NCBI GenBank assembly: GCA_964498135.1
Contig: CAZCGG010000008.1
Coordinates: 1-46,266 of the forward strand
Length of the DNA: 46,266 bases
Direction of reading: 5' to 3'
Origin: an uncultured Candidatus Moduliflexus sp.
GTDB lineage: Bacteria; Moduliflexota; Moduliflexia; Moduliflexales; Moduliflexaceae
The translations under genes and the position numbers were made by a program. Numbering within the stretch: position 1 is the first letter of the stretch; each line of letters starts with the position of its first letter. The notes below the pieces were generated by a model. That model saw only the letters and a list, made by a program, of their open reading frames with translations, did no database searches and had not been told where the DNA came from. This document shows, one piece after another, positions 15,755 through 46,266 of the stretch.

Positions 15755-15767
15755 AAAGGATGGAATC

Positions 15768-16547
15768 ATGGCATTATCCAGTACGCAAATTTTCTCTATA
15801 GAAAGAACAATTAAAGAAAGTTTAAGAAATAAATTTCAGCGTTATAAGCCAGAATCTCAAAACATGCCATTTCATTATCGGCTATTAGGGAAAGATCGAA
15901 TGGCTCTTTATTCGTTTCTCCAATCGTTAAATACCACGTTTGGAACATCTATTTTTGAGCCTGTCGCAGTAACATTAGCTCAAACACATTTCATCAATGC
16001 CAAAGCACAATATGTTGCTGGAAATGAAATTAGCGAACAGGCTCAAAAAGTTATTCAGGAAATTATCAATCAACTCACAACAGGCCAAGATAGCCATAAA
16101 AATGAAGAAATTGAACGTATTAGAGCAGTCTGTCAACAAGGTCGAATGAATAGATTGAAAACGGTAAAAATAGATTTATTGGTTGAAGATTCTGCGGGTG
16201 CTTTATTTTTATTCGATTTAAAAACTGCTAAACCCAATATGAGTGATTTTAAGATTTTAAAACGAAATTTATTAGAATGGTGCGCGATTATGTTAGCGAA
16301 AAATCCTACTATAGACATTCATTCTCTTATTGCAATTCCTTATAATCCTTATGAGCCAAAACCTTATGAACGTTGGACATTAAAGGGAATGCTTGATTTA
16401 AACGAAGAGTTGAAAGTTGCTCAAGAATTTTGGAATTTTCTTGGCGGAGATGGCGCGTATGAAGAGTTGCTTAATTGTTTTGAAAGAGTTGGCATTGAAT
16501 TACGCACAGAAATTGACCGATATTTTGAAAAATTTAAAACGGCGTAA
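15768..16547 (+). CDS. Type II restriction endonuclease, TdeIII-like (family assignment from memory)
   Basis: Sits 13 nt downstream of the methyltransferase, on the same strand and in the same AT-rich composition. PFHYRLLG...TTFGTSIFE and D-x-K-type FLFDLKTAKPN agree with what I recall of the RE_TdeIII family. SD AAGGA. Confidence 0.6.
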   Translation: MALSSTQIFSIERTIKESLRNKFQRYKPESQNMPFHYRLLGKDRMALYSFLQSLNTTFGTSIFEPVAVTLAQTHFINAKAQYVAGNEISEQAQKVIQEIINQLTTGQDSHKNEEIERIRAVCQQGRMNRLKTVKIDLLVEDSAGALFLFDLKTAKPNMSDFKILKRNLLEWCAIMLAKNPTIDIHSLIAIPYNPYEPKPYERWTLKGMLDLNEELKVAQEFWNFLGGDGAYEELLNCFERVGIELRTEIDRYFEKFKTA

Positions 16548-19405: not shown

Positions 19406-19464
19406 CCGTTCGCCCTGAGCCTGTCGAAGGGCATTGATGGGTTCGACAAGCTCACCGCGAACGG
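19406..19464. repeat. Core-only copy of the CCGTTCGCCCTGAGC.TGTCGAAGGG hairpin repeat
   Basis: CCGTTCGCCCTGAGCCTGTCGAAGGGC, then 8 nt, then GTTCGACAAGCTCACCGCGAACGG. It shares its core with the MITE-like elements but lacks their termini. Confidence 0.7.
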
Positions 19465-20697: not shown

Positions 20698-21810
20698 ATG
20701 TTCGAACGCATCAAACAAATTTTATTGAAAGAATTTATTTTGTCGTTCCGCGATCCGAAAAACCGCTTTCTGCTCTTCGGTCCGCCGTTGATTCAACTAT
20801 TTTTATTCGGCTACGTGGCGACCACCGATGTCAATTCGGTCACGACCGCGCTTTACGATCTCGACCATTCACAGGAAAGCCGCGAACTCGTCCGGCGGCT
20901 CGAAGCGTCGGGCTATTTCACGCTGACTTACGCGCCCGAATCTCCGGCGGAAATTCAGGAATTGATGGACAAAGGCCGCGTGATGTGCGTATTGCAAATC
21001 AACGAGGGCTTCAGCCGCGATCTGCGCGCCAACACGCCGACCGCGATTCAACTCCTGTTCGACGGCACGGACTCGAACACGGCGACGATTGCGATGAATT
21101 ACGCCACGCAGATTGTCAACCGTTACGCGCAGGATCTTGCGCCGCGCGCCGCCGCGCTGTCGCTGGCGAACATCGAATTTCGCCCGCGCATCTGGTACAA
21201 CCCTGAATTGAAAAGCCGGAATTACTACGTGCCGGGCGTGATTGCGTTCATCATCCTGCTGACCTGCCTGATGCTGACTTCGATTGCGATTGTGCGCGAG
21301 CGCGAAACCGGCACGATGGAGCAATTGATGGTGACGCCGCTGCGCCCGTTGGAACTGATTCTCGGCAAAACGCTGCCGTTCGGCTTGATGTCGTTCGCGC
21401 AGATGGCGTTCATTACGACGGTCGGCGCGCTCTGGTTCAAGATTCCGATTCGCGGCTCGCTCTGGCTGCTGTTTCTTGGCGCGTTGGTCTATGTCTGGTC
21501 AACGCTCGGCATCGGCCTGTTCATCTCGACCATCACGAAAAATCATCAGCAGGCGGTCATGGTGACGATGCTCTTCAACATGCCCGCGCTCATGCTGTCT
21601 GGCTTTATTTTCCCGATTGAAAACATGCCGCTCGCGTTCCAATATTTCACATACATCAACCCGCTGCGCTATTTTCTGGTGATTATTCGCGGCATTTTCC
21701 TGAAAGGGAACGGCTTCGCCATTCTCTGGCCGCAGATTGCCGCGTTGGCCGCGCTCGGCCTGATTATTATGACCATCAGCGCGCTGCGTTTCAGCAAGCG
21801 GCTGAATTAG
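20698..21810 (+). CDS. ABC-2 family permease (second subunit)
   Basis: Colinear with the 19487 gene (MFERIKQILLKEF vs LIRIKAICKKEF). The start was moved to ATG 20698 because the listed 5' extension is translated from the palindromic repeat. Confidence 0.85.
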   Translation: MFERIKQILLKEFILSFRDPKNRFLLFGPPLIQLFLFGYVATTDVNSVTTALYDLDHSQESRELVRRLEASGYFTLTYAPESPAEIQELMDKGRVMCVLQINEGFSRDLRANTPTAIQLLFDGTDSNTATIAMNYATQIVNRYAQDLAPRAAALSLANIEFRPRIWYNPELKSRNYYVPGVIAFIILLTCLMLTSIAIVRERETGTMEQLMVTPLRPLELILGKTLPFGLMSFAQMAFITTVGALWFKIPIRGSLWLLFLGALVYVWSTLGIGLFISTITKNHQQAVMVTMLFNMPALMLSGFIFPIENMPLAFQYFTYINPLRYFLVIIRGIFLKGNGFAILWPQIAALAALGLIIMTISALRFSKRLN

Positions 21811-21956
21811 ACCTTTTGCAGAAGTCGTTTATCTGCGACTTCCGTTCGCCCTGAGCATGTCGAAGGGCGCGATGTGGGCGTGGTGCGAATTGCGTTCTTC
21901 GAAAAAACACCCTTCGACATGCTCAGGGCGAACGGGGGGATTTTGCAAGAGGTCTA
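21808..21956. mobile_element. MITE-like non-autonomous element, copy A (149 bp)
   Basis: TA-GACCTTTTGCAGAAG ... TTTTGCAAGAGGTC-TA termini enclose the long hairpin core CCGTTCGCCCTGAGCATGTCGAAGGG / CCCTTCGACATGCTCAGGGCGAACGG. Its first three bases are the permease stop codon. Confidence 0.7.
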
Positions 21957-26799: not shown

Positions 26800-27140
26800 A
26801 CATCCTCCGTCAAACAATGGTTGGTGAACCGCCGACATGCGCGGGCTGCAAAACGGGTTGACGATATGCAGGGCGGAGATTCTGTCAAGGAATTTCGGCG
26901 CGGCAGGCGAATTGCGGCGGTGCAAGCGGCTTTCCGGCGATCTCATACGCCGCGCAAAAAATTTTTTTTGGTAGATGTAAAACTTCTTGACATGAGCAGT
27001 GAAAGATTTGATGATGGATCATGATTTTGAGACAGGTGGGTCTGTCAAACAAAGCCGTTCGGGCAGCGGCGTGGAAGCTTATTCCACGCCAAGTTAGGTT
27101 TAATTAAAAACGGGACATCATCATAAAAAAAGTAACATTT

Positions 27141-27367
27141 ATGAAAACATATCAAAGTAAAAAATTAATTATTGGGTTTATCTTAGGCAGTTTTTTGTAC
27201 TTTGTTTCGTCATTGGATGTGCAACTACGGATGAAAAACAAAAAATAACCGTATCTCAAACGGGCATCTTAATAGGCGTTATTGGTACATTTATCCTTTT
27301 TACATGGGCAAATCTGGCCACGAGCGATATTAAAAAAGAAGGTATTATTAAAGTATTATTTAGGTAG
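27141..27367 (+). pseudogene. Small lipoprotein-like gene interrupted at a T6 tract
   Basis: ATG 27141 opens MKTYQSKKLIIGFILGS and stops at 27246-27248. One extra T in T6 (27191-27196) would give ...GSFFVLCFVIGC|ATTDEKQ... (lipobox VIGC) plus a C-terminal TM (GILIGVIGTFILFTW), ending at TAG 27365-27367. No SD is visible. Confidence 0.35.
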
Positions 27368-27535
27368 TCTTTTTGCAGGATATGGTTTATCATAAAAATA
27401 AATCAAGCTGCTCAAAATCTATCGGCGTGGGTTGAATTACGAAGAAAGGGATGAATCTCAAAAATAGAATACTTACTTGAAGAAGCTCGCAACCTCAACA
27501 AAGTTGTTAAACATATTCATGCGCATGTGGCGCGG

Positions 27536-27571
27536 AAACAGGGAAGAAATGATTGTTTCTTCCCTGTTTTT
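27536..27571 (+). terminator. Strong plus-strand hairpin terminator in the non-coding AT-rich islet
   Basis: 14-bp perfect stem AAACAGGGAAGAAA / TTTCTTCCCTGTTT, 6-nt loop, T tail. Confidence 0.6.
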
Positions 27572-27574
27572 GTC

Positions 27575-27603
27575 TTGACGGAAGATAGGGGAGAATGATA
27601 AAT
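27575..27603 (+). promoter_or_regulatory. Candidate promoter of the PIN operon
   Basis: TTGACG (27575-27580), 17-nt spacer ending in TG, ATAAAT (27598-27603). A strong SD GAGGAGGG lies 7 nt before ATG 27666. Confidence 0.3.
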
Positions 27604-27665
27604 GATAGTAGTCTGAAAACAACGAGGTAAGTTGAATCATCGCCACGTTCGAGGAGGGTTCAGGA

Positions 27666-28139
27666 ATGTTTCAAATCTATCTTGACACATCAGTGATCTC
27701 GGCATATTTTGATTTTCATAAACCGATCCGACAATTGATCACGCAAAAATGGTTTGAATATAATGCCCAAGAGTATCAGTTATTTGCATCAAGCGTGGTG
27801 TTAGAGGAAATCCATAAGAATACCGATCAAATCTTGTTAGTCAAGATGTTACAACTTCTTGATGAATATGTGGTATCAATTCTTGAAGTCAATGAGGAGA
27901 TTACTCGACTTGCAGAACAATATCGTTCCCAAATCCTACCACAGGAAATAAACGATACGCTTCATCTCGCGATTGCGTCATACGCTCAACTTGATGCGAT
28001 TGTTTCGTGGAATTTTCGGCATATCGTGAATTTAAAAACTATGAAAATCATTCAAGAAATCAATAGACAACAAAACTATCCCGAAATTCAAATTCTCACG
28101 CTTGAACAGATCGGAGGGGCACAATATGGCAGTCTATAA
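27666..28139 (+). CDS. PIN-domain ribonuclease-like protein (VapC-like toxin candidate)
   Basis: Acidic residues sit at PIN positions: IYLDTSV (Asp7), VVLEEIH, EINDTLHLAIA, VSWNFRHI. 157 aa, AT-rich. Confidence 0.75.
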   Translation: MFQIYLDTSVISAYFDFHKPIRQLITQKWFEYNAQEYQLFASSVVLEEIHKNTDQILLVKMLQLLDEYVVSILEVNEEITRLAEQYRSQILPQEINDTLHLAIASYAQLDAIVSWNFRHIVNLKTMKIIQEINRQQNYPEIQILTLEQIGGAQYGSL

Positions 28140-29186: not shown

Positions 29187-29330
29187 TAGACCTCTTGCAA
29201 AAGTCCCTCCCGTTCGCCCTGAGCCTGTCGAAGGGCGCGCTTGACTGGTGTTTCTCCCTGAGAATCCGCTCTTCGACAGGCTCAGAGCGAACGGGGTGTC
29301 GAGGAAACAATGACTTATGCAAGAGGTCTA
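29187..29330. mobile_element. MITE-like non-autonomous element, copy B (144 bp)
   Basis: TA-GACCTCTTGCAAAAG ... TTATGCAAGAGGTC-TA termini; core CCGTTCGCCCTGAGCCTGTCGAAGGG / CTCTTCGACAGGCTCAGAGCGAACGG. Confidence 0.7.
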
Positions 29331-30072: not shown

Positions 30073-31264
30073 TTTTGGCGGCTTGGCGGCTTGGCGCAAG
30101 AAATTCGTCGGAAATGCGGCCTTGTAGCACGTGTTCAATCACGGCGGCGGCGCGGTCAGTTGCGCCCGGTTCGCCTAATTTTTGACGCGCGACGCGCAAT
30201 TCTTGGCGAATGTCCGCGAGGGCGGCCGGATTGTTCAACAAGCGTAGCGCCTCCTGCGCGATGGCGTCGGGCGTGGCGGCCTGCTGAATAAACTCTTTCG
30301 CCACCTCTTTCCCTGCAATCAGGTTGACCATGCCGATAAAGCGCACGTTGATGAATTTCGAGCCGATCCAATACGTCAACGGCGCGACGATATACGCAAT
30401 CATCATCGGCGTTTCAAGAATCGCCGTTTCGACCGTCACCGTGCCGGAGGCCGTGATGACGAGATCGGCGGCGCGAATCGCCTCGTATGTCTGCTGGCGA
30501 ACGGGAATCACCCACGACGGCAAATCGGCAAACAAGGCAGATTGCTCTAACGGCGGCGCGACCGGCAAAATAAATTGCGTCTCCGGCTGCCGCTGGCGAA
30601 TGCGCTGCGCGGCGGCCAGCATGACCGGCAGCAGGCGTTCGACTTCGCTGTCGCGGCTGCCCGGCAGCAATCCGAGAATTGGGCGTTCCGGCGCGAGGCC
30701 ATGCCGCTCGCAGAATTGCGCTTTCGTCAGCGACGAGCGGACGCTTTCGACAAGCGGATGCCCAATCCATTCGACATCCACGCCGCGCCGCCGGTAAAAT
30801 TCCTGCTCAAACGGGAAAATCACGATCATTTTCGTGACGACGCGCTGAATCAATTTCACCCGCGACGACCGCCACGCCCAGACTTGCGGGCTAATGTAAT
30901 ACACCACCGGAATGCCGAGTTTATGGGCGACTCGCGCCAAACGCAGGTTAAAATCCGGGTAGTCAACCAACATCACGAGATCGGGGCGTTCTTCCTTGAG
31001 AAAGCGCGTCAGCTTGCGGAAGACGCTCCAGACGACGCCCAATTTTTTCAGCACTTCCACCACGCCGACGACCGCTAATTCATCGCTGCTGCTGAGCAGC
31101 GCGACGCCTTCGGCCTTGAGATGCGCTCCGCCGACGCCGGAAATCTGCGCGTCCGGCCGCCGCCGCTTGATGGCGCGAACTAAGTGCGCGCCGTGCAGGT
31201 CGCCGGAGGCTTCGCCCGTGACAATAAGCATTCGAGGAGAATGCGCCGTTTGTCGTGTTTGCAT
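30065..31264 (-). CDS. lpxB: Lipid-A-disaccharide synthase
   Basis: LIVTGEASGDLHGAHL, ELAVVGVVEVL, VDYPDFNLRLA, YYISPQVWAWR, LLPGSR. The start was placed at MQTRQT (SD AAGGA). Confidence 0.9.
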   Translation of the reverse strand: MQTRQTAHSPRMLIVTGEASGDLHGAHLVRAIKRRRPDAQISGVGGAHLKAEGVALLSSSDELAVVGVVEVLKKLGVVWSVFRKLTRFLKEERPDLVMLVDYPDFNLRLARVAHKLGIPVVYYISPQVWAWRSSRVKLIQRVVTKMIVIFPFEQEFYRRRGVDVEWIGHPLVESVRSSLTKAQFCERHGLAPERPILGLLPGSRDSEVERLLPVMLAAAQRIRQRQPETQFILPVAPPLEQSALFADLPSWVIPVRQQTYEAIRAADLVITASGTVTVETAILETPMMIAYIVAPLTYWIGSKFINVRFIGMVNLIAGKEVAKEFIQQAATPDAIAQEALRLLNNPAALADIRQELRVARQKLGEPGATDRAAAVIEHVLQGRISDEFLAPSRQAAKNA

Positions 31265-31392
31265 GCTCAATCCTTTCCGCAAAACGCAAGACATTTGTCA
31301 AGAACTGAATTGCGGCGATTTTCAGATTTCCCGCATAATATCTGTTGACAAGAAAGAAGGTGAAAACCAGAGTAACAACAGAGGTGAATACC

Positions 31393-31656
31393 ATGAATAC
31401 GGTCACATATACTCAAGTTCAGACATTAGTACGGCAAATTCCCGCGACAAAACTGCCTCTTGCTTACCGATTCCTCGCTGATTTGGTTGCGGGTGAGACA
31501 AATGAATTATTGCCGCAGCAAGCGTTTCTCCGCCTCCCGCTTTCCGAACGGCGGCGCAGAATGGCTGAACAAGCGCATGCCTTGACGGCTCACTATGCCG
31601 AGCAGTCCGCAAATCGCCAAGACTGGCAGGCAGGGGATTTTCATGATGATTATTAA
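31393..31656 (+). CDS. Putative antitoxin (DUF2281-like N-terminus) of the adjacent MazF/PemK remnant
   Basis: SD GAGGTGA lies 5 nt before the ATG. VQTLVRQIPATKLPLAYRFLADLV resembles DUF2281-type antitoxins. Its stop overlaps the toxin ATG. Confidence 0.55.
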   Translation: MNTVTYTQVQTLVRQIPATKLPLAYRFLADLVAGETNELLPQQAFLRLPLSERRRRMAEQAHALTAHYAEQSANRQDWQAGDFHDDY

Positions 31657-31910
31657 GCGCGGAGAAGTCTGGCTCGTCAATCTTGATCCGACGATAGGCT
31701 CGGAAATTCGGAAAACTCGTCCGGTTATGGCATGTCAAAATAGAGCCGGATTCTTCGAATAAATTGACAAAAATATCAGCCGTTGACACATTACAGCTAC
31801 GCGGCGTTGATAATCAGCGATTTGTTCAAAAATTAGGTGTGGTTTCTGCTGAAATCATGAAATCCATAGTAAACGCCATCGTTGCAGTTATTGAATATGA
31901 ACCAGAATAA
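31643..31910 (+). pseudogene. mazF: mazF/pemK-family toxin gene with an internal out-of-frame deletion
   Basis: The N-terminal frame gives MMIIKRGEVWLVNLDPTIGSEIRKTRPV, then nonsense and TAA at 31760-31762. A second frame gives ...[59 protein letters not shown], ending at 31908-31910. The central segment expected in MazF/PemK proteins is missing. Confidence 0.75.
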
Positions 31911-37447: not shown

Positions 37448-37475
37448 CGTCAGGCGCTTCTCGAAGCGCCTGACG
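37448..37475. terminator. Bidirectional hairpin between convergent genes
   Basis: CGTCAGGCGCTTC / GAAGCGCCTGACG, a near-perfect 13-bp palindrome. Confidence 0.6.
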
Positions 37476-37486
37476 TGTTTGCGAAA

Positions 37487-38674
37487 CTATTCCGCGTGGC
37501 GCACAATTTTTTTGACCGTGCCGTCACGATTCAAATAGTAGGCGATGCCGCGCCAGCGCATGACATTCGTGAAGAGCGTCAGCAGGCTCGCCCACGCCAT
37601 CAGCACGATATAGACCGGCGAAAGCAGCCACCACGATACGCCGCTGTGGTGATCGTCGGTCGAGCGTTTCAGCAAGCGGCAGCAAAGCATCAGCAGCAGC
37701 GCGAACGCGGCTTTCATTCCGACGAACAGCGCGACTTTTTTGCCGGGAACGAGCAGCGCGAACGTCGCCAGAATTGGCAGCGCAAGAAGATTCGCCGCCG
37801 CATACGCAAACAGCGCGAGCAGCGCGAGCCACGACGGGCGCAGATAATATTTGACATAGAGCATTTGGCGCGTGAACCAGACCAGCGCGCCGCGCACCGT
37901 ATCAATCGCATGCGGCGTCTCTTTCACGCACGTCGGCACGAAGACCGCGCGGCGCCGTTGCTGCTGAATCATGCGTTGCAGCGTCATGTCATCCACCACC
38001 GTCTTCGCCCAGTATTCGCGCACGCCCATCTTCTCGAAATCTTCGCGCCGAATCGCCGTCGCGCCGCCCCAGACCGCGCTCACGAAGATGCAATTCATCG
38101 CCGAATATTGCATGCCGATCATGAACGCATGAAGGCGTTCGCCGAGCGTCTTTTTCCGCAAAATATTCCAGCGAAAGCCGACGGCGGCGGTAATTTTCGG
38201 ATGCGAGAGCGGGCGGATCAGATCGCAGAATTGCTGCGTCGAAAGCGTGGTCAGCGCGTCTAAAAAGAGGTACACGTCCGCCCGCTCTTCCGACGCTTTG
38301 ATGCCTTGCAGCAGATTGTGATTTTTTTGGCCGCAGGTTTTCGCCAAACCTGCCACCACGAGATGCGCGTTCTCGGCGTCTTTCAGATATTGCCGCAGCA
38401 TCGGATACGCGGCGTCGCGCTGATTTTCCACGATGAAAAAGAGCCGCGCTTTCGGATAATGGTTGCGCAAAAACGCGCGCAGATTGCCTTCAAATTGTTC
38501 GTCAACGCCCTTGCACGGGATGAAAATTGACACGCGCGGCGCGTAATCATGCCGGAAATGCCGCGCGTATTTTCGATGATACAAGCGGGGATACAGGCGC
38601 AAAGAAATCACAAACACATACGCGACGAACAAGCCAATCACATCAAAGACGCTCAGAACGTAAAATTGCTCCAT
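37487..38674 (-). CDS. Membrane glycosyltransferase, GT2/GT21 (ceramide glucosyltransferase-like)
   Basis: N-terminal TM, VSIFIPCKG, an acidic DAL motif (YLFLDALT), GGATAIRREDF, VVDDMTL, and C-terminal TM helices. Confidence 0.8.
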   Translation of the reverse strand: MEQFYVLSVFDVIGLFVAYVFVISLRLYPRLYHRKYARHFRHDYAPRVSIFIPCKGVDEQFEGNLRAFLRNHYPKARLFFIVENQRDAAYPMLRQYLKDAENAHLVVAGLAKTCGQKNHNLLQGIKASEERADVYLFLDALTTLSTQQFCDLIRPLSHPKITAAVGFRWNILRKKTLGERLHAFMIGMQYSAMNCIFVSAVWGGATAIRREDFEKMGVREYWAKTVVDDMTLQRMIQQQRRRAVFVPTCVKETPHAIDTVRGALVWFTRQMLYVKYYLRPSWLALLALFAYAAANLLALPILATFALLVPGKKVALFVGMKAAFALLLMLCCRLLKRSTDDHHSGVSWWLLSPVYIVLMAWASLLTLFTNVMRWRGIAYYLNRDGTVKKIVRHAE

Positions 38675-38690
38675 GCGGCGCTCCTCAAAA

Positions 38691-38834
38691 TAGACCTCTT
38701 GCAGAAGTTATTGTTTCTCTGGCAACCCGTTCGCGCTGAGCCTGTCGAAGCGCGTCTTTTTCGGGAGAAACGACCGTCACGCGCGCCCTTCGACAGGCTC
38801 AGGGCGAGCGGAAGAGACGTTTGCAAGAGGTCTA
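38691..38834. mobile_element. MITE-like non-autonomous element, copy C (144 bp)
   Basis: TA-GACCTCTTGCAGAAG ... GTTTGCAAGAGGTC-TA termini; core CCGTTCGCGCTGAGCCTGTCGAAGCG / CCCTTCGACAGGCTCAGGGCGAGCGG. Confidence 0.7.
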
Positions 38835-38869
38835 ATAAACAATCGCGGCAGGCATTGCGCCGCAATCGC

Positions 38870-40459
38870 CTACATTCCCCAAACCGTCACGGTTGTTTCG
38901 TGATAATTTTCCTGACGGCAAAAGATTTTCTCCGCCCAACTGACATGTTTCCGCCGGTCGAAAATGACAAGATGCCCTTCGTTTGCGCCGCAGCGATCCA
39001 TATATTGCCACGTCTGCGCCACGCCACTGCGAATCGTTTCGTCTAAATCGCCGTACCGGATTTTCAACTCGATGACGACATGCTGAACGCCGCTACGATG
39101 CGGCCAAATCGCCAATAAATCCGTGCGTTTCATGCCCAAGCCGTACTCGCGCTCAATGCGCCCGCCGCCGTTGATAATCCGCGAGAGAAACGCCTGCATC
39201 AGCAATTGCGGCCCGGCTTCTTTGTATTGAAACCGCTCGCCCCAGCTTTCCGAATGCTTGCGGAAAAATTCTTGAAACGCCGCCATCAATTTCGGCATAT
39301 CGAGTTGGCCGTCATTCGGGCGAATGTACCATTGCGGCTGCTCGCTGATCGTCAATTGCGTCACATACGTCAACTCGCGGGGAATCACTTCCTGATAGAG
39401 CCGGTTGGCGATGCGCACCTGCCCTTCGGTTTTGATTAAGCCCAAATCGCGGACATAGCTGAGATCGTCGGGCGGATAATCTTCCGGCGCGTCAATGCCG
39501 CTCAAAATCGGCTCGATGACGCGGCGGACGCGCTCTTCCTGCAATTTATCCGCTAACTGGTCAAGATGAGTTTCGCGGCGGGCGATAATCCGCTCTTTCG
39601 CCGCGTGAACCATCTCGGCGGTAATCGAGTTCGCGCGGTTGCGCCCTTCCGGCATTTCGAAACAGACTTCATATCCGAGCGCGTTTACCAGCCAGGGCTG
39701 TCCTTCGCTGAACGCCCACACGCAATCAAGGGCTTTCGAATCAAACGTCTGCCCGGTTTCGGCGGTATGACAGCGATATAATTCCGTGATTTCTTCCCGG
39801 ACGAAATCGCCTAATCGCAGCGATTTCGCTTTGATGTTGAACGCGCTGCCGCCCGTAATCACCGTTTTTTCTTGGCTGGAATGAATCCGATAATCCCGCA
39901 CGTCGCGCACGCCGCAGAGAATCACGCTTTGCGGAAACAGCGCGGGGCGTCCGGCATAGCCGCTGCGCAATTGGCGAAGCAGCGAAATCAGCGTGTCGCC
40001 GATGAGCGCGTCCACTTCGTCAATCAACAACACAAACGGCTTCGGCGACGCCTTTGCCCATTCGCTCAACGTTTTTTGAAAGGCGTTGAATTCCCCGTCA
40101 TGTTCAAGAATCTCCTTCCAATGTTCGCGGACGAAGTGATCATGCAGATAGTTTTCGGCTTTATCCGCCAATTCCGACAACACCGAGCGGATGCCGGCCT
40201 TGACGTTTTCGCGGGCAGCCTGCGCGTTTTCGATGTTCATGTACAAACAGGCGTAAGTTCCCTGCTGATTCAAATAGTCCATCAACGCCAGCAGGCAGGA
40301 CGTTTTGCCGGTTTGACGCGGCGCGTGCAGAACAAAATATTTTTTCTGCGCGATCAAATCCAGCATTTCCGAGAGGTTGATGCGCTGTAATGGCGGCAAA
40401 CAGTAATGATCCTTGCAGTTCACCGGCCCTGCGGTATTAAAAAAGCGTTCGTGCGTCAT
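38870..40459 (-). CDS. ORC/AAA-ATPase-like domain fused to a C-terminal PD-(D/E)XK nuclease-like domain (paralog 1)
   Basis: FFNTAGPVNCKDHYCLPPL lead-in, Walker A HAPRQTGKTS, Walker B FVLLIDEVDAL, and C-terminal KRTDLLAIW...VVIELKIRYG (D...ExK). The start was set at MTHERFF (40459) because the listed extension is repeat-derived. Confidence 0.75.
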   Translation of the reverse strand: MTHERFFNTAGPVNCKDHYCLPPLQRINLSEMLDLIAQKKYFVLHAPRQTGKTSCLLALMDYLNQQGTYACLYMNIENAQAARENVKAGIRSVLSELADKAENYLHDHFVREHWKEILEHDGEFNAFQKTLSEWAKASPKPFVLLIDEVDALIGDTLISLLRQLRSGYAGRPALFPQSVILCGVRDVRDYRIHSSQEKTVITGGSAFNIKAKSLRLGDFVREEITELYRCHTAETGQTFDSKALDCVWAFSEGQPWLVNALGYEVCFEMPEGRNRANSITAEMVHAAKERIIARRETHLDQLADKLQEERVRRVIEPILSGIDAPEDYPPDDLSYVRDLGLIKTEGQVRIANRLYQEVIPRELTYVTQLTISEQPQWYIRPNDGQLDMPKLMAAFQEFFRKHSESWGERFQYKEAGPQLLMQAFLSRIINGGGRIEREYGLGMKRTDLLAIWPHRSGVQHVVIELKIRYGDLDETIRSGVAQTWQYMDRCGANEGHLVIFDRRKHVSWAEKIFCRQENYHETTVTVWGM

Positions 40460-40468
40460 AAGTGGTTT

Positions 40469-40528
40469 CCGTTCGCCCTGAGCGTGTCGAAGGGCAGTTT
40501 TGTGGTTCGACACGCTCACCACGAACGG
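40469..40528. repeat. Core-only copy of the CCGTTCGCCCTGAGC.TGTCGAAGGG hairpin repeat
   Basis: CCGTTCGCCCTGAGCGTGTCGAAGGGC, then 9 nt, then GTTCGACACGCTCACCACGAACGG. Its right arm supplies the last codons and the stop of the STAND gene. Confidence 0.65.
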
Positions 40529-43497
40529 CGCGCGGTTAGATGGCTTTCGATCCGTTCAATCACAGGCATCTGCGGGCTGCCGTCACCGGGTTCGCGCTCG
40601 CGGGCGAGACGTTCGGCCTCAAGCAACGGGATGTTTTCAGGAATCGGGGAAATGGTATCCGGGCGCGGCTGACCGACATCATTCGCGCCGGTTTGCCAGA
40701 AGGCTTTGAGCCGGCGCAGCGTATTTCGCCCGTCCTCGCCGCGCTGCAAGCAGAACGGAATCAACGGCTGATACGGCGTCGGAATGTTGTCGCCGAACAG
40801 GATTTCGTCTAAGCAGAAACGATTGTAGCGAAGCGCATAGATCAATGCCTGCTGATAAAAATCGAAGGCGGCGTCCGGCTCTTCCTGCCAGAGCAGATGG
40901 CCTTGCAGCAGGTGGAGCGCGGCAATATGCTCGTTGTATTCGTATTGCTGCGCTAAGGCTTCGGCCTCGGCGATGAAGGCGGGAATGTCGGACAGCTTGC
41001 CTTGCGCATATTTGACCCGCGCCATGCCGACGAGGGCTTCACATTCAAAATTTCGTCGAGATGTCCAACGATATTCCTCTAATACTTCGCAGTAATACTG
41101 TTCCGCTTTATCGTAATTATGGCGGATTTCTTCTAATTCTCCCAACCAAATTAAAATTTCAGGAATACCGCAACCATGTTGATTTTCTTGCTTGATCTTT
41201 AAGCTTTTTGTGAGAAACTCATCAGCATCATTAAGAAGGTTTTGGTTGATCCGAATTTTTCCTTGAAATCCTAAAAACTGAGCTATGTCACTCAATACTG
41301 CTCTATGTGTTTCGCAAAACTGTTGCCATACTAAAAAAGCTGCTGTTGATTGTGAATATTTTTTTTGAAATCCAGCAATAAGACCTAATCCTCCCGAAAT
41401 TTGAGCGACATTATTATCATCCCCAATCTGATGTATATATTCTAGAGCCTCTCTACTTGATAATTCTGCTTCTCTATATCTTCCGCTCCAAATAAGCGCC
41501 CATAATGAACCTCCTTTGAAGCGAAGTCCCAAAAGTTTATTATCTGACGCAGACTGAAGCTTTTCAAGTCCTTGATTATAATAATATATAGATTCTTTCC
41601 AGTAACCAAAAATACCATAAAAAGATTTTAAATGTCTATAGGTAATAAGAAGACTATAGTTATCATCTCGCTTCTCTGCCCATTCCTGTAACAGTTGAGT
41701 ATATAATATCCTTTTTTCTACATTCTGCTTGCCAACATAATATATCCATGAAAGGAACGGTAAAATAGACCCTACTTTAATGTCATTCGGGGGAAGTAAT
41801 TTATAACTTTCTTCTAACATTTGGATTGCTTTATCTACTTCATTCGTTTGATACCCTTTTAAATCTAACCAAAATTCTCCAAGATCACATAACGAATATG
41901 CTCGTAAAGAGATTTCTGCCTGCTGGTTCTGGATAATCTTTTCATAACTCATAGCAGCAATTTCTAAATTTGATTCTATCCGAGCTATCTTTCCTTGATA
42001 ATACTCCCGCCATAAGCGGCTATTTTCCTGTTCCAATGGATACGTGCTGACATCGCTCAACAACGTTTTGAGCCGATTGACCATACAGTAGCGAGTCAAC
42101 TCTTCGGCGGTCGCTTGAAACAACTGGATGCCGGTTTCTTCGTTTGCCCGAACGCGATGATATAGCCGTTCCAAGCCGAACAACTCCTGTTCCGTCAGGC
42201 TCGCTTGCGGCATGGCCTGTTCGAAATAGGCGGCGGCGCGTTCGTGCCACTGTTTATGCCGCGCCGGATCGTGAATTTTCAGGTTTTCGTCCAGCACGTC
42301 TCGCACCACGTCATGCAGCGCCAATTTCCCTTCGCGCACCGGGCGCGTGAACGGAAACTGCCGCAATTCCTTGAAATCCGCCGCCGGAATCTCCGTTTCC
42401 AACACCGCCCGCAACACGGACAGATCGAACCAGCGCAGCGCCGCCGCCGCTTCAACGAGGCGTTCAATCGTTTTCGGCACGGATTCCAGCAGGCGATCCA
42501 CCAAATCCGCCGCGACTTGCGCTTTGATGGTCTGGAAATCGGTGTGATCGTATGCCGCCCACAGCCGCGCCGCCGTCGTCGCCACGAGCGGCAAGCCCCG
42601 CGAAAATTTCACGACCGCCTCCACTTGCGCCGGGTCCGGTGTCGCGCCGCGCATGGCCTGATAATAGCGGCTGATCACGTCGCGCAGATGTTCATCTTCC
42701 ATCGGGCGCAATTCCTCGAACCGCGCCTGCATGAGGCAGCCCGGCCAATCGCGCTCCCACGCTTCGCCGCGAAAGCTGCGCGTGGCGATGACGAACAAGA
42801 TATTCCCATGCGCCGCCCGCGCCAATTCGCGCACCCAATCATCTAACGTTCCGATTTGCTCGTAGGTGTCGAACATCAGCGTCACGCGCTTTTTGGCGGC
42901 GGTTTTGGCGAGGTCGGTCACAAACTGCTGCGTCAGGAGTTTGAGCGGATTGAGATAAAAATCCACGTCCGGCTTATTCAAAAAGCCGAACAGCCAATCG
43001 GTCAACGCTTCCGCGCTCATGCCGCCCACGACGCTGCCCAATGGGCCTAAGACGGCGCTCGCGGCGGTTTCCAGCGCGGCCTTCGCGCTCGCTTTGCCCG
43101 CGTTCGCAAGCTTGCTCTGCCCCGCCCGCAGCTTTTCCTCAACTTTGGCCTGAATCGCCTGATAACGCTGGAACGCCACGCTGAATTCCGGCAGTTTGAC
43201 GCCGCTTTTGCCTAATTCATCGGACAAGCCGGTCAGCATTTCGACGCCGGTTTTGGCTTCGTCCACGCTGACGAATCCGACCGGAATCGCCTGCTTTTTG
43301 CAAAACAAACGGAACATTTTCAGCAGCGTGGATTTGCCGCCGCCACCGACGCCGTGAATAATCAGCAGGCGTTTCGGCAGATTTGGCGCGGTCACAAATT
43401 CTTCGAACAATTGCCGCAAATGCTCGGTGTTGGTGAATAAGGCTTCTAAGGCCGTTTCTTCGGCAGTCAATTGATATGCGCGCTTGCCAAACAACAT
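40516..43497 (-). CDS. STAND-class P-loop NTPase with long C-terminal TPR array (993 aa); no recognisable N-terminal effector domain
   Basis: Walker A IIHGVGGGGKSTLL about 50 aa from the proposed start MLFGKRAY. Walker B VTLMFDTYEQ. Then a helical/winged-helix region followed by more than 450 aa of TPR-like repeats. The listed N-terminal 25 aa (MNRRDAEVAEKNIFLRSPRL...) are translated from a palindromic repeat. Confidence 0.8.
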   Translation of the reverse strand: MLFGKRAYQLTAEETALEALFTNTEHLRQLFEEFVTAPNLPKRLLIIHGVGGGGKSTLLKMFRLFCKKQAIPVGFVSVDEAKTGVEMLTGLSDELGKSGVKLPEFSVAFQRYQAIQAKVEEKLRAGQSKLANAGKASAKAALETAASAVLGPLGSVVGGMSAEALTDWLFGFLNKPDVDFYLNPLKLLTQQFVTDLAKTAAKKRVTLMFDTYEQIGTLDDWVRELARAAHGNILFVIATRSFRGEAWERDWPGCLMQARFEELRPMEDEHLRDVISRYYQAMRGATPDPAQVEAVVKFSRGLPLVATTAARLWAAYDHTDFQTIKAQVAADLVDRLLESVPKTIERLVEAAAALRWFDLSVLRAVLETEIPAADFKELRQFPFTRPVREGKLALHDVVRDVLDENLKIHDPARHKQWHERAAAYFEQAMPQASLTEQELFGLERLYHRVRANEETGIQLFQATAEELTRYCMVNRLKTLLSDVSTYPLEQENSRLWREYYQGKIARIESNLEIAAMSYEKIIQNQQAEISLRAYSLCDLGEFWLDLKGYQTNEVDKAIQMLEESYKLLPPNDIKVGSILPFLSWIYYVGKQNVEKRILYTQLLQEWAEKRDDNYSLLITYRHLKSFYGIFGYWKESIYYYNQGLEKLQSASDNKLLGLRFKGGSLWALIWSGRYREAELSSREALEYIHQIGDDNNVAQISGGLGLIAGFQKKYSQSTAAFLVWQQFCETHRAVLSDIAQFLGFQGKIRINQNLLNDADEFLTKSLKIKQENQHGCGIPEILIWLGELEEIRHNYDKAEQYYCEVLEEYRWTSRRNFECEALVGMARVKYAQGKLSDIPAFIAEAEALAQQYEYNEHIAALHLLQGHLLWQEEPDAAFDFYQQALIYALRYNRFCLDEILFGDNIPTPYQPLIPFCLQRGEDGRNTLRRLKAFWQTGANDVGQPRPDTISPIPENIPLLEAERLAREREPGDGSPQMPVIERIESHLTARRSW

Positions 43498-43507
43498 AAT
43501 TTTTACA

Positions 43508-43567
43508 CCGCAGAGACGCGGAGAACGCAGAAAAATGTTTTTCTCCGCGACCTCCGCGTCTCGGCGG
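43508..43567. repeat. Palindromic intergenic repeat (GAGACGCGGAG type)
   Basis: CCGCAGAGACGCGGAG ... CTCCGCGTCTCGGCGG with an inner stem GCGGAGAA / TTCTCCGC. Confidence 0.55.
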
Positions 43568-43656
43568 TTCAATTACAGATGACAAAAACCATCGCACCTA
43601 CCTGAATGAACAACGCATTGACAGCGAGGGAAAAATTTTTCAAGGGAAATCGCATT

Positions 43657-44478
43657 TCAGCGATATTTTTCAGCGAGTTGCCGGTACGCCGCCGCGTCTG
43701 CCGGTTTATCGCGTTTGGCGCAGCCTTGCGCCATGATGTCGCATTTGCGCCGCAGTTCATCCGCCGCCTGCTGACGCTGTTCTGCCGTCAAGCCGCCCGC
43801 TTGCAGGAGCTTTTCGAGCGACTGAATCCGAAAGCGATCCAGCCCCCAATGCGTCCGCGAGAGTTGATCATCATGCCCGCCGCGCTTGATAATCAGGGGC
43901 GTTTCGATGAAATGCACCGGGTGGGTTTTGGTGATGCGCAGCCACAAATCATAATCTTCGCAGGCGGGCAGGGCTTCATCGAAATAGCCGACTTCATCGA
44001 ATATCGCGCGGCGAATCAGCGCGGACGACGGGCTGATGACGCAGAACGGCAGGCAATGCGGGAAAATATAGCCGCCGTGCTTCTGGTGCTTTTTCATCTG
44101 ATTGACGCGGACGCCGCGCCGAATCCAGATTTCTTCGGTATGGCAGAGCGGAATGTGCGGCTGCGCCTCCATGACGGCGATTTGCGCGGCAAGCTTTTTC
44201 GGCAGCCAGAGATCATCGGAATCGAGCAGCGCGATATAGCGGCCTTGCGCGGCGCGGATGCCCGCGTTCCGCGCGCTGCTGACGCCGCAATTTGCCTGAA
44301 AAATCGGGCGGAGGCGCGCGCCGTAGCCGTCCAGCACATCGCGGGTGCGATCCGTCGAGCCATCGTCAATCACGAGAAGCTCAACATCACGAAAGGTTTG
44401 CGCGAGGACGGACTCAATCGCCTCTTTGAGAAAATCGGCGCGGTTATAGGTCGGAATGATCACGCTGACGGTCGGCAA
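43657..44478 (-). CDS. Glycosyltransferase family 2
   Basis: VSVIIPTYNRADFL, LLVIDDGSTD, LDSDDLW, CEDYDLWLR. TTG start with SD AGGGGTG at 8 nt. Only 5 nt downstream of the preceding ATPase-nuclease gene. Confidence 0.85.
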   Translation of the reverse strand: MPTVSVIIPTYNRADFLKEAIESVLAQTFRDVELLVIDDGSTDRTRDVLDGYGARLRPIFQANCGVSSARNAGIRAAQGRYIALLDSDDLWLPKKLAAQIAVMEAQPHIPLCHTEEIWIRRGVRVNQMKKHQKHGGYIFPHCLPFCVISPSSALIRRAIFDEVGYFDEALPACEDYDLWLRITKTHPVHFIETPLIIKRGGHDDQLSRTHWGLDRFRIQSLEKLLQAGGLTAEQRQQAADELRRKCDIMAQGCAKRDKPADAAAYRQLAEKYR

Positions 44479-44483
44479 TTTGA

Positions 44484-46073
44484 TTACACCCCTGTTGCCA
44501 CAAAGACCGGCATGACGGTCACGCCCGTCTCATCGTCGAGAACCGGCGTCTCGAATTTATGACGATGTTCGTCGCTGATCGCCTCAATGAAAAACAGCAG
44601 CGTGATCTCTTGCAAGCGCAGTTGTTTGCCATACTGCGCGGCCTGTTTCACGGCATTCCGATATTCCGCCACGTCCGCGAACGTTTTCAGTTCAATGCCG
44701 TACATCTGCCCGCGATAGGTGATAATCAGGTCTATTTTGCCGTTGCCCGTCGGAAATTCCGGCCAGACGTTCGCGCCTTTGCCGCGCAAAAATTGATGTA
44801 AGTATAGGTAAAGATTGAAGTGATACACCGCCTCATAAATCCGCAAATCGGCGCGGCGCGGCGCATCCTGAAACAGCCAGCGGCTATTCTGCGTCAAATA
44901 TGCCTGATACCGCGCTAATAACGGCAGCAGACATAATGCATTTTCCGTAAAAATATCGGAGAGATCATCGAACGGATCGCTCATCCGTCCGATGTCATGA
45001 AACAATTCATCTGCAAAATAATTGAACAGCCGTTTTTGCACGAACGGGCAGAAAAATTTGACGTAACTCTGGGTCGGACTGACTTTATCGAGATCGATCA
45101 CACCGTTGAAATAAAGATAGTTTGTCGGCGGAAAATCGTATGCAAACGACGTTTTCCGATCAGTATCGAACAGACGCAGCACGAAATCTCGATACGGTCG
45201 CTGCTTGGCCTTGCTCAAAATATTCAAAATTGTGTTGTTGGGAAGCACGTTAATGGCTTCGGCATACACTTCATCGAATTTCGCCCGTGTAATCGGTTCG
45301 GGAAAGTTCTGGTTATACGTTTCAGTCAACAATTCGCCGAGCCAACCAATCAACCCCGGATGCCCATTCGTTTCGACAAACAGCCGCATAATCACGTCCG
45401 GCGCGATGGTTTGACCGCTTTCGCGCTGATACCAGTCGAACATGCCCTTCACTTCGTCAAAGGTAAGATTGGGAATGCGGACGCTGCGCTGAACGTTGAA
45501 CGGCGAGCCGGTCGTATTTTCGATGCCCAGCACGCTGCGGATGCCGATCAACGCGAGGCCGTGCAGCAGATACGTTTTTTCGGAGGATGGTTTCGCCTCG
45601 CTTTTTCGAGAAAGATAGAGATTCCGGCATTCGCTCGCAAATTTGCTGATGAATGATTCCTCTAAGGCGTCAAATTCATCAATAATCAAAATAAGCGGTT
45701 TTGACAAATACGTTCGAGTGAACAATTTGGGGAAATCATCCCACGTAATTCGTTCAGGGAAATTTCGATCCGAAAAATAGCGCAGTTCCCGCAGAAGAAT
45801 GTAAAGAATGGTTTCATGATTTTGCTCATATTTTGCGCTTTCGGCAGAAATCATGATGACATCGAATTCCGCGCTCTGCCGCAGACGTTTCACGACCTCC
45901 AGCATTGTCCACGTCTTTCCGGTTTGGCGCGGCGCCCAAATTGTCATGTAATGCCCGCCCTCATCAACCGGATCGCCGAGCAACTGCCGCATGGCGAAAT
46001 CAACCAGCGCCTCGCGCGGCGCGTAATATTCGGAGGCAGTCGAAACCGGGCCATACGAAGAAAATTTGCGCAT
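44484..46073 (-). CDS. ORC/AAA-ATPase-like domain fused to a C-terminal PD-(D/E)XK nuclease-like domain (paralog 2)
   Basis: Walker A WAPRQTGKTW, Walker B LILIIDEFDAL, and C-terminal GNGKIDLIITYRGQMYGIELKTF (D...ExK). The start was set at MRKFSSYGPV (46073). Confidence 0.75.
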   Translation of the reverse strand: MRKFSSYGPVSTASEYYAPREALVDFAMRQLLGDPVDEGGHYMTIWAPRQTGKTWTMLEVVKRLRQSAEFDVIMISAESAKYEQNHETILYILLRELRYFSDRNFPERITWDDFPKLFTRTYLSKPLILIIDEFDALEESFISKFASECRNLYLSRKSEAKPSSEKTYLLHGLALIGIRSVLGIENTTGSPFNVQRSVRIPNLTFDEVKGMFDWYQRESGQTIAPDVIMRLFVETNGHPGLIGWLGELLTETYNQNFPEPITRAKFDEVYAEAINVLPNNTILNILSKAKQRPYRDFVLRLFDTDRKTSFAYDFPPTNYLYFNGVIDLDKVSPTQSYVKFFCPFVQKRLFNYFADELFHDIGRMSDPFDDLSDIFTENALCLLPLLARYQAYLTQNSRWLFQDAPRRADLRIYEAVYHFNLYLYLHQFLRGKGANVWPEFPTGNGKIDLIITYRGQMYGIELKTFADVAEYRNAVKQAAQYGKQLRLQEITLLFFIEAISDEHRHKFETPVLDDETGVTVMPVFVATGV

Positions 46074-46120
46074 ATTGAATCGCCGCCGCCAAACACGCCG
46101 AACGTGTCTGGCGCGGCGCA

Positions 46121-46266
46121 TTATTGCATCAACTTTTTGACGCGAGCGATGATTTCCTTCATTTCCGCGCCGCTCACGGAATTGGCAATGCCAAACGCCG
46201 CGCCGTTCGCCGCGTCCATGATGCCCGCCGACACGACGCGGAGAATCGAATCCGCGTATTGATTAT
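46121..46266 (-). CDS. 3' end of an unidentified gene continuing beyond the window
   Basis: The reverse strand reads ...NQYADSILRVVSAGIMDAANGAAFGIANSVSGAEMKEIIARVKKLMQ*, with the stop at 46121-46123. Too short to assign a family. Confidence 0.3.
   Translation of the reverse strand, partial: NQYADSILRVVSAGIMDAANGAAFGIANSVSGAEMKEIIARVKKLMQ

Follow-up and report, generated by a model that had tools for sequence, protein, structure and literature searches.

Do five neighboring genes of a Moduliflexus-like (KSB3) bacterium make up one defence system? The window, that is, the whole stretch of DNA that was analysed, is 46,266 nt long, and its region of interest (37487–46121) was studied by open reading frame (ORF) listing and homologue comparison. 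The ORF listing confirmed five minus-strand genes in the order given by the original prediction: an ATPase-nuclease gene (AN2), a GT2 glycosyltransferase gene, a gene for a STAND NTPase with a TPR array (hereafter STAND), a second ATPase-nuclease gene (AN1), and a gene for a GT21-like membrane glycosyltransferase. The prediction had joined them into one cluster, with STAND as the sensor, the flanking nucleases as effectors, and the glycosyltransferases as further members. In its full form, this reading states that STAND senses an invader and activates both ATPase-nucleases, and that the glycosyltransferases perhaps modify the target. Several observations favor it. The five genes point in one direction with only short gaps between them, and a single strong terminator ends the series. 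The full arrangement also recurs in the loci L169 and L170. STAND has no known effector domain, and the literature contains the proposal that glycosyltransferase domains act as effectors of STAND conflict systems (PMC8195603).

Our analysis leads to a different answer. The locus is very probably a conserved envelope gene string with a variable slot, which holds independent single-gene modules, together with a genome-wide miniature inverted-repeat transposable element (MITE), and not one defence system. The one-system reading is not supported, because AN2, STAND, and AN1 assort independently and because, in 160 unrelated loci, the proposed partners were almost never found together. What the data show directly, as described below, is which domains the proteins carry, that the three genes come and go independently, that they lack conserved neighbors, and that their genealogies are mosaic. 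The genes of the locus and the end of the gene string are as follows.

44484–46073, minus strand: AN2, 529 aa (ORF 44484–46121; probable start M17 at 46073, from the ORF list and homologue starts)
43657–44478, minus strand: GT2, 273 aa (from the ORF list)
40516–43497, minus strand: STAND-TPR protein, 993 aa (ORF 40516–43572; start M26 at 43497, from the ENA gene call and homologues)
38870–40459, minus strand: AN1, 529 aa (ORF 38870–40522; true start M22 at 40459, from the ORF list and homologues)
37487–38674, minus strand: GT21-like membrane glycosyltransferase, 395 aa (from the ORF list)
37448–37475, minus strand: intrinsic-terminator-like hairpin, a 12-bp stem followed by a T run, which ends the minus-strand gene string

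The probable start of AN2 was placed at M17 because all homologues begin there. The start of AN1 was placed at M22 because the first 21 codons of its ORF come from a hairpin repeat. The extra N-terminal codons of the long STAND and AN1 ORFs were translated intergenic palindromes. GT2 starts 5 nt past the AN2 stop codon. The genes around the five-gene region (carB, lpxB, lepA, and an Atg22-type MFS transporter gene) are housekeeping genes.

Core genes and the variable space between them

The locus was compared in five versions among Moduliflexus-like (KSB3) genomes: L001 (the metagenome scaffold matching the window, MUNK22 series), L169/L170, L086, L002, and L171/L172. L002 is Candidatus Moduliflexus flocculans (candidate phylum KSB3), the nearest named genome, and its AN1 is 88% identical. 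The backbone runs in the order TPR/SLH protein, GT2, GT21-like membrane glycosyltransferase, and Atg22-type MFS transporter. The TPR/SLH gene, GT2, and the GT21-like gene were kept in all five versions. This TPR/SLH-GT2-GT21-MFS string is a conserved envelope-related backbone of the bacterium. Both glycosyltransferase calls were supported by Pfam: GT2 matched Glycos_transf_2 (E 2e-35), and the GT21-like protein exceeded the cut-offs of Glyco_transf_21 (36.5 bits vs 21.7) and Glyco_tranf_2_3 (45.8 vs 27). A role of the GT21-like gene in hopanoid glycosylation (HpnI) was considered and rejected, with a score of 58 bits against a cut-off of 310 and an unsupportive context.

The accessory genes differed among the versions. 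In the window (L001) and in L169/L170, the order was TPR/SLH, AN2, GT2, STAND, AN1, GT21, and MFS. In L086, both AN genes were absent, and the order was TPR/SLH, GT2, STAND, a 124-aa PDDEXK_3 nuclease gene, GT21, and a PIN pair; its flanks were 91–96% identical to the window at the DNA level. In L002, STAND was absent, and TPR, AN2, and GT2 were followed by a PIN gene with a 66-aa ORF, AN1, a caspase-PDZ gene, UPF0175, DUF4160, DUF2442, and GT21. In L171/L172, both STAND and AN1 were absent, and the order was TPR, AN2, GT2, a 45-aa ORF, DUF2442, and GT21. Thus, the accessory combinations seen were AN2 with STAND and AN1, STAND alone, AN2 with AN1, and AN2 alone. A lack of conserved co-occurrence of STAND with the AN genes had been set beforehand as the outcome that would refute a joint system, and STAND without any AN gene in L086, together with AN genes without STAND in L002 (both AN2 and AN1) and L171, contradicts that system.

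The site of AN2 lies exactly between the TPR/SLH gene and GT2. The interval is 1648 bp in the window and 54 bp in L086, with flanks that are 96% and 92% identical, and the indel lies between a small hairpin kept in both sequences and the GT2 start codon. The space between GT2 and GT21 is a variable hotspot, with fixed core flanks and a cargo that is different in all four distinct arrangements. In the relatives, this cargo included a PIN pair, a caspase-PDZ gene, small toxin-antitoxin-like genes, and a PDDEXK_3 nuclease gene. Together with STAND, it is conflict-flavored, and no validated defence system was found among it. Variable hotspots and defence islets between core genes have been described for the pan-genomes of E. 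coli and Pseudomonas. The slot resembles them in its fixed core flanks (GT2 and GT21 here) and strain-dependent cargo. It differs from them in that no integrase, tRNA, or attachment site was visible here, and only five haplotypes are at hand. Scanning the window for Rfam families and tRNA genes gave no match, and hence no signature of a tRNA-linked island.

The histories of the genes were compared by synonymous divergence (dS) and nonsynonymous divergence (dN). Relative to L169, dS was 0.07–0.09 in core genes (0.07 in GT2), 0.32 in AN2, and 0.26 in AN1. Relative to M. flocculans (L002), dS was 1.1–2.0 in core genes and 0.51 in AN1. Therefore, the accessory genes have histories separate from those of their flanks. 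All of these genes were under purifying selection (dN/dS 0.09–0.32).

Co-occurrence was then sought in unrelated genomes. The AN1 census covered 80 genome loci with flanks of up to 10 kb around relatives at 54–67% identity, in which partners were sought by tblastn. GT2 and GT21 were each found near 0/80 of these relatives, and STAND near 1/80 (27% identity over 249 aa). Near AN2 relatives (80 metagenome loci), STAND and GT21 were again at 0/80, and a generic GT2 was found at 2/80 with 27% identity; these two loci look like the same organism. A joint system is contradicted by these counts of 0–1/80 for STAND and GT21 in each census and by the wholly different neighbors of STAND relatives. It is also contradicted by the presence of the glycosyltransferase genes in every haplotype whatever the cargo, by synonymous divergences that differ among the five genes, and by PADLOC, which returned no system. 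In that search, AN1, AN2, GT2, and GT21 had no significant match, and STAND matched only a generic TPR model. An NCBIfam scan of the five proteins gave nothing diagnostic. The original prediction had named as equally plausible that glycosyltransferase genes were invaded by selfish ATPase-nuclease genes and repeats. By synteny this was essentially correct, with the addition that STAND itself is also an invader.

The ATPase-nuclease proteins

The domain calls of the original prediction (ORC-like P-loop, D...ELK nuclease motif, STAND-TPR, and GT2/GT21) were all correct. In both flanking proteins, the ORC-like P-loop motifs (PRQTGKT, IDE.DAL) and the C-terminal D...ELK can be read directly. The translations contain APRQTGKT, LIIDEFDAL, and GKIDLII...GIELK in AN2, and APRQTGKT, LLIDEVDAL, and RTDLL...VIELK in AN1. 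Both proteins exceeded the gathering cut-off of AAA_35 (PF14516, 27 bits), AN1 with 39.5 and AN2 with 33.1 bits. The Pfam check thus returned AAA_35 for both AN proteins, in addition to the glycosyltransferase families; of the families that the prediction had proposed, PF09820 stayed below the cut-off for AN1, and PDDEXK_9 was unmatched by either protein.

AN1 and AN2 had been described as only distantly related, and this was borne out. Their identity was about 23–24% (24% by BLASTP, E 8e-17, over the N-terminal 300 residues). Their profiles were homologous over the full length by hhalign (probability 99.7%, E 2e-26), with the D...ExK motifs aligned. On these alignments, AN1 and AN2 are best described as old paralogs with one stereotyped architecture, each from a different one of two sister families that diverged deeply.

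The AlphaFold model of AN1 (predicted local confidence, pLDDT, 73) displayed an AAA+ core followed by a helical region and, at the C-terminus, an alpha-beta-beta-beta-alpha-beta unit. The middle part is a helical/winged-helix region between the ATPase and the PD-(D/E)XK-type domain. The best Foldseek matches were ORC/Cdc6 proteins, followed by RuvB, RFC, and the archaeal PABY2304 ATPase. The ORC/Cdc6 matches (Drosophila ORC/Cdc6 7jgr, Cdc6 1fnn, and Orc1 2qby) had a probability of 1.0 and low TM-scores of 0.2–0.3, which were low because the global predicted TM-score (pTM) of the 529-aa model was only 0.40. Walker A (PRQTGKT) and Walker B (LLIDEVD) were invariant in the alignment of AN1 relatives. 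With its Walker A/B motifs, lid, helical/winged-helix region, and nearest structures, the AN ATPase is modelled as an AAA+ ATPase of the ORC/Cdc6 clade.

The C-terminal part of AN1 was predicted in the order H416–429, E434–440, E445–454, E457–468, H472–490, and E494–501. D447, E464, and K466 were invariant in the alignments of 27 and of 23 relatives, and these catalytic-type D/E-x-K residues form a PD-(D/E)XK signature on the expected strands. Matches to nuclease families were sub-threshold only (NucS_C E 0.2, NERD 0.074, and MTES_1575 0.085). A profile of the AN1 C-terminus had no match among PDB sequences, and phmmer of AN1 against the same sequences gave no usable match. A few AN2 relatives (e.g., P0270 and P0360) carried precomputed PDDEXK_9 matches. 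The assignment of the AN C-terminus as a predicted PD-(D/E)XK nuclease-like domain is well founded but not proven.

Both families are large. The AN1 search returned at least 8000 matches, of which the top 120 were all 64–98% identical and about 526 aa long, and the AN2 search returned at least 2925. A phmmer search against 1.84 billion cluster representatives (clusters at 50% identity) found 5371 clusters at E<=1e-3, of which 1001 reached E<=1e-30. Nearly all full-length members of the AN1-family clusters had 510–550 aa. One AN1-family representative (P0361) has 993 aa with two matched stretches, in which the ATPase-nuclease unit has apparently been fused in tandem or duplicated. NCBI annotates the homologues as "AAA-like domain-containing protein" or "ATP-binding protein".

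The bacteria in the AN1 census were Desulfobacterales, Chloroflexota, Acidobacteriota, Latescibacterota, Spirochaetia, Gammaproteobacteria, and Clostridia. The archaea were Methanothrix, Methanospirillaceae, and Methanomicrobiales, and bacterial and archaeal copies shared about 60% identity. Several copies per genome or contig were seen, some of them in tandem. In one Pseudanabaena strain, AN copies of about 40% identity were located on multiple megaplasmids, one per plasmid. A search of the phage (INPHARED) and IMG/VR collections with AN1 found no relatives.

The neighbors of the AN genes did not recur. All-against-all clustering of the flanking ORFs found no recurrent neighbor for either AN family, and the only repeated ORFs were further AN copies and two other ATPase-nuclease architectures. 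The 105 immediate neighbors of AN1 relatives were mostly one-off metabolic and transport housekeeping genes, and the only recurrent Pfam pair among them was AAA-ATPase_like with PDDEXK_9 (4 times). For example, one genome has a lone AN1 relative flanked by ribF/crp-like and adenosine-kinase genes, and in a second genome such a gene follows a fatty-acid oxidation cluster. In a comparison of 300-nt flanks of 67 AN1-type loci, all against all, neither family-wide ends nor target-site duplications were found, only genome-specific repeats or orthologous flanks. Since family-wide terminal sequences were lacking there, the AN genes do not resemble transposons with defined ends.

One neighborhood was dense in conflict genes. 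In Ca. Vecturithrix granuli, a filamentous KSB3 bacterium (L003, 6689–18792), an AN1 relative is flanked by two large proteins, a TPR-CHAT protein of 983 aa and a TPR protein (NPHP3-type) of 1130 aa. Next come, within 9 kb, a PIN gene and an AN2 relative, and upstream there is a BrxL-like gene.

Among known families, PF14516 ("AAA-like domain") is the closest in name. Both AN proteins are above its cut-off and share its annotation, its length of about 530 aa, and its solo occurrence. However, its model spans only the ATPase and the helical part and excludes the C-terminal PD-(D/E)XK-type domain, and the family has no assigned function. A literature search on AAA_35/PF14516 found no functional study; only the surveys of DUF1703 and of PD-(D/E)XK proteins were informative. 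These surveys describe DUF1703 (PF09820+PF08011), ATPase_2+DUF234, and AAA_14+DUF4143 as expanded, horizontally transferred families without conserved context and of unknown function (PMC3424549; PMC6387759). DUF1703, which combines AAA-ATPase_like (PF09820) with PDDEXK_9 (PF08011) and occurs in Bacteroidota, methanogens, Cardinium, and Rickettsia, resembles the AN proteins in its N-terminal ORC-like ATPase, its C-terminal PD-(D/E)XK domain, and its length of about 520–600 aa. It also shares their lineage-specific expansions, horizontal transfer, and lack of conserved context (PMC3424549; PMC6387759). By contrast, AN1 scored 18.9 bits on PF09820 against a cut-off of 26.1, with PF08011 unmatched, and AN2 matched neither; a true DUF1703 member (L036) reached 224 and 68 bits on the two models. 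By these profile scores, the AN proteins would form a sister family of DUF1703 and are not members of it.

AAA_14+DUF4143 (COG1373) corresponds to the PADLOC candidate PDC-S01, as was verified here. It is likewise a solo ORC-like ATPase with a PD-(D/E)XK-type domain and was found near AN relatives. It differs in its length of about 400 aa, and PDC-S01 is itself only a candidate; AN1 matched it at the P-loop only (E 0.003), AN2 had no match, and neither protein had a significant PADLOC match. The type IV system McrBC may share the logic proposed for the AN proteins, since there a DNA-assembling AAA+ NTPase gates a PD-(D/E)XK nuclease, an analogy drawn from domain content. However, McrBC consists of two proteins, with a GTP-specific AAA+ of the McrB clade and a modified-base reader domain, and none of these features was detected in the AN proteins.

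From sequence and analogy, nuclease activity, ATP gating, and a conflict or defence role would be expected of the AN proteins. If functional, AN1 and AN2 would each be an autonomous one-protein unit. The ORC-like module would assemble on DNA in an ATP-dependent manner, and this assembly would license cleavage by the nuclease domain. An AN protein would then be an ATP-gated restriction-like enzyme, with McrBC logic in a single chain, that acts in genome conflict. We rated genome conflict as the likeliest role, above a purely selfish element or another cellular role, and gave it roughly even odds.

The STAND-TPR protein and its hypervariable cassette

The STAND protein carries the P-loop GVGGGGKS and the Walker B motif MFDTYEQ. 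Its Pfam matches were below the cut-offs (TPR_MalT 38.7 vs 45; nSTAND_NTPase5 19–22.5 vs 34). The AlphaFold model had a pLDDT of 82.5, and the top Foldseek matches were 6mfv, the crystal structure of the STAND-TPR protein PH0952 (E 3e-10), and MalT (8bob, 7.8e-7). A phmmer search against PDB sequences gave no usable match. The modelled fold identifies the center gene as a MalT/MNS-like STAND NTPase with a helical arm and a C-terminal TPR array. Three of its parts are listed here.

42985–43125, minus strand: Gly/Ala-rich, glycine-zipper-like insert (STAND aa ~125–170), conserved in the family, between Walker A and Walker B
41000–42050, minus strand: AT-rich hypervariable TPR cassette (STAND aa ~482–816), delimited by GC content and allele comparison
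40519–41007, minus strand: C-terminal 163 aa (...YNRFLLDEVL...RPDTISPIPEGIPLLEAERIAREREPGDGSPQ), one of the best-conserved parts of the STAND family when phyla are compared

That STAND lacks an effector of its own, as first proposed, holds in that no known enzymatic domain is present. No effector domain was found in Pfam, and only about 45 residues precede the P-loop. The claim falls short in that a conserved Gly/Ala-rich insert and a C-terminal region of about 150 aa exist. The insert was predicted to be disordered in the model and had a weak C19orf12 match (E 0.017); it is possibly an output or membrane-active element. The C-terminal 163 aa had no Pfam match at E<=10 and were helical in the model.

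PH0952 and MalT (6mfv, 8bob) are the best structural matches and share with STAND the NTPase, the helical arm, and the TPR sensor. MalT differs in its LuxR DNA-binding domain. No LuxR/GerE domain was matched in STAND, so it is not a MalT-type transcription activator. Avs/AVAST proteins resemble STAND in their TPR-repeat sensor and in being a horizontally mobile family. In contrast, they have an N-terminal effector domain, which is absent from STAND, and the PADLOC Avs models did not match it. This STAND clade is itself set apart by its Gly/Ala-rich insert, its conserved last 150 aa, and its swappable AT-rich cassette.

The cassette had a GC content of 30–37%, compared to 55–65% in the rest of the gene. 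The same GC dip was present in L086 and L169 and was milder in distant homologues. Five alleles were compared, from strains whose core genes are 96–98% identical. The NTPase half was 96–98% identical and the C-terminal 150 aa 83–98% identical among them. The cassette was only 45–55% identical in every pair of the five alleles. Its dS was about 1–3 and its dN 0.4–0.5, compared to a dS of 0.15–0.2 and a dN of 0.01 outside it. Raised dS together with raised dN points to anciently diverged cassettes that were swapped by recombination, and not to simple positive selection. The allele sequences thus suggest an exchange of the STAND cassette by recombination among old alleles. Searches by tblastn and blastn for silent donor cassettes of the TPR region found none elsewhere in the window. 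Mutagenesis of the diversity-generating retroelement type was rejected for the cassette, with a variable tract of about 1 kb, dS and dN both raised, and no template repeat.

Relatives of STAND were found as 212 matches of about 1000 aa with 41–48% identity. In 4 unrelated contexts, they were solo genes with entirely different neighbors. A homologue with 44% identity (L088, 8001–11009) lies between the two ATPase genes of an oligopeptide (opp) ABC transporter operon and is a further case of a single accessory gene placed into a housekeeping operon. Another relative adjoins an IS110 fragment and HEPN/NTase pairs. A third lies beside a Type ISP restriction enzyme, and one is located within a DISARM-like island with TumE toxins.

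That STAND itself takes part in conflict or recognition is plausible because its sensor is hypervariable and 2/4 of the unrelated contexts are defence islands. In a recent survey, only 198/589 STAND clades were defence-associated (PMC12803255), and therefore a defence role of STAND cannot be assumed. STAND would be a separate MalT-like switch without a dedicated partner in the locus. Its exchangeable TPR cassette would most likely capture a strain-specific ligand, which would lead to NTP-dependent oligomerisation.

Repeats, other insertions, and the standing of the alternatives

The original prediction placed a palindrome, a hairpin, and a MITE between the genes. All three were present at those places, but the hairpin and the MITE were not specific to the cluster and were dispersed over the window.

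43507–43568, no strand: palindromic repeat I3, with 29-nt arms that are 83% complementary and a 4-nt loop, between GT2 and STAND
40469–40528, no strand: hairpin-only repeat copy I6, core TTCGACAGGCTCAGGGCGA, aligned with the other copies
38691–38834, no strand: MITE-like element of full length (inverted repeats I15 and I2), ~145 nt, in which the 18-nt terminal inverted repeat TAGACCTCTTGCAGAAGT encloses a hairpin

The I3 palindrome was a single copy in the window. The long STAND ORF reads through it, and the real start at 43497 lies downstream. The hairpin at 40469–40528 overlaps the STAND stop codon and is the source of the spurious N-terminal extension of AN1. The MITE family had three full copies in the window (21808–21956, 29187–29330, and 38691–38834) and two hairpin-only copies (19410–19460 and 40469–40528), with the inner core CCGTTCGCCCTGAGCCTGTCGAAGGGC. 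The chance expectation for such matches in the window was 0.02–0.05. The copies at 19410, 21808, and 29187 are intergenic and adjoin housekeeping genes, and a related copy was found in L086 at a different place. This short, non-coding element of about 145 nt, with terminal inverted repeats and dispersed copies, is a MITE. A composite transposon that carries AN1 was dropped because the bracketing inverted repeat I1 consists of two copies of the dispersed, window-wide MITE/hairpin family.

Further genes of note were observed elsewhere in the window. A type II restriction-modification pair, consisting of an N6_N4 DNA methyltransferase (528 aa) and a TdeIII-family endonuclease (259 aa), occupies an AT-rich island (14168–16547, 34–37% GC). 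It sits inside a zinc-uptake operon, between znuA with a metallophosphoesterase gene and znuC/znuB, and this position indicates that the genome habitually acquires modules inside its operons. The 528-aa ORF at 14168–15754 was at first a candidate for a third AN paralog by its length and was rejected as the DNA methyltransferase of this pair. Two further finds among the housekeeping genes are of the toxin-antitoxin type. A PIN-domain gene (27666–28139) lies in an AT-rich patch (37% GC, 27001–28000). A PemK-type toxin gene with a small upstream ORF (~31150–31910, from gene calls on L001) is located between lpxB and lepA. The segment 1001–2000 is also AT-rich (36.5% GC) and contains a 286-aa ORF (1106–1966) with a weak HEAT-repeat match, which may be a compositionally foreign repeat protein.

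Several points weigh against independent modules in an envelope gene string, or against a defence role of the AN genes. AN2 is tightly packed with GT2 (a 5-nt gap in the window, a 4-nt overlap in L171) and was kept at the same site in 4/5 haplotypes, which leaves room for a functional tie to the envelope operon within the lineage. The haplotype sample was small (n=5), and all but L002 came from metagenome assemblies. In Vecturithrix, one relative each of AN1 and AN2 lies with two large TPR proteins inside 9 kb, and in one Amarolinea locus an AN1 relative is located near a weak STAND-like match. These two cases leave formal room for a loose relationship of STAND and AN in trans. Regarding defence, the neighbors of the AN genes were mostly housekeeping genes with few PADLOC matches among them, and the AN proteins were far more conserved than typical immune genes. 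Furthermore, the PD-(D/E)XK assignment was based on the motif, the predicted topology, and sub-threshold matches only.

The alternatives differ in how well they account for these data. In the broadest of them, the AN families would be extremely widespread one-protein ATP-gated nucleases in genome conflict in Bacteria and Archaea, STAND would be a cassette-swapping, strain-specific immune or allorecognition receptor, and both would share a "conflict islet" without forming a single machine. The output of STAND would then run through its Gly-zipper-like insert, its conserved C-terminal module, or partners encoded elsewhere. We put this forward tentatively, as a possible reading that we would not yet favor.

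It is unlikely that AN1 and AN2 are mobile and selfish, inserting copies of themselves at intergenic sites by means of their own nuclease, in the manner of homing endonucleases or one-gene transposons, without benefit to the host. A precise gene-sized indel would fit such genes, as would several and sometimes tandem copies per genome or contig, one copy on each of several Pseudanabaena plasmids, and bacterial and archaeal copies at about 60% identity. Insertions between housekeeping genes also fit, and in some genomes inverted copies of local repeats flank the gene. However, the family has no conserved ends or target-site duplications, and the hairpin in the window belongs to the dispersed MITE family. 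Orthologous copies persist at the same site across lineages with dS >1, purifying selection is strong over the full length (dN/dS 0.09–0.3), and no copies were found in the phage and viral collections.

It is highly improbable that, in this lineage, AN2 serves the TPR/SLH-GT2 envelope operon as one of its working parts, such as a regulator or a DNA-linked checkpoint. In its favor, AN2 begins at or directly past the TPR/SLH stop codon and lies 5 nt from GT2 (with the 4-nt overlap in L171), and its site was retained in 4/5 haplotypes across deep divergence. Nevertheless, L086 has the same operon with an intact GT2 and no AN2, and GT2 was absent near 78/80 unrelated AN2 loci, the two exceptions being generic with 27% identity. 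In Vecturithrix, the AN2 relative is located between a PIN gene and a sigma-factor gene, and the dS of AN2 relative to L169 was four times that of its neighbors. A single defence system of all five genes, with the independent assortment and the census counts against it, is very unlikely.

The conserved envelope string with its slot of independent modules therefore adds one more instance of things already known, namely Pfam families that are uncharacterised, a variable hotspot, a MITE, and a STAND-TPR protein, and it is not a new system. This negative outcome keeps a false composite system out of catalogues that are based on adjacency in a single genome. The AN families have thousands of members, and those of archaea are about 60% identical to those of distant bacterial phyla. 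Purifying selection on the AN genes is strong, and yet they are gained and lost between close strains. This combination of conservation and turnover is unusual for immune genes and for junk elements alike. In STAND, a cassette of about 33% GC lies within a gene of 60% GC and is different in each of five near-identical strains. The cassette offers a clear natural case of a bacterial NLR-like protein whose sensor is exchanged as a module.

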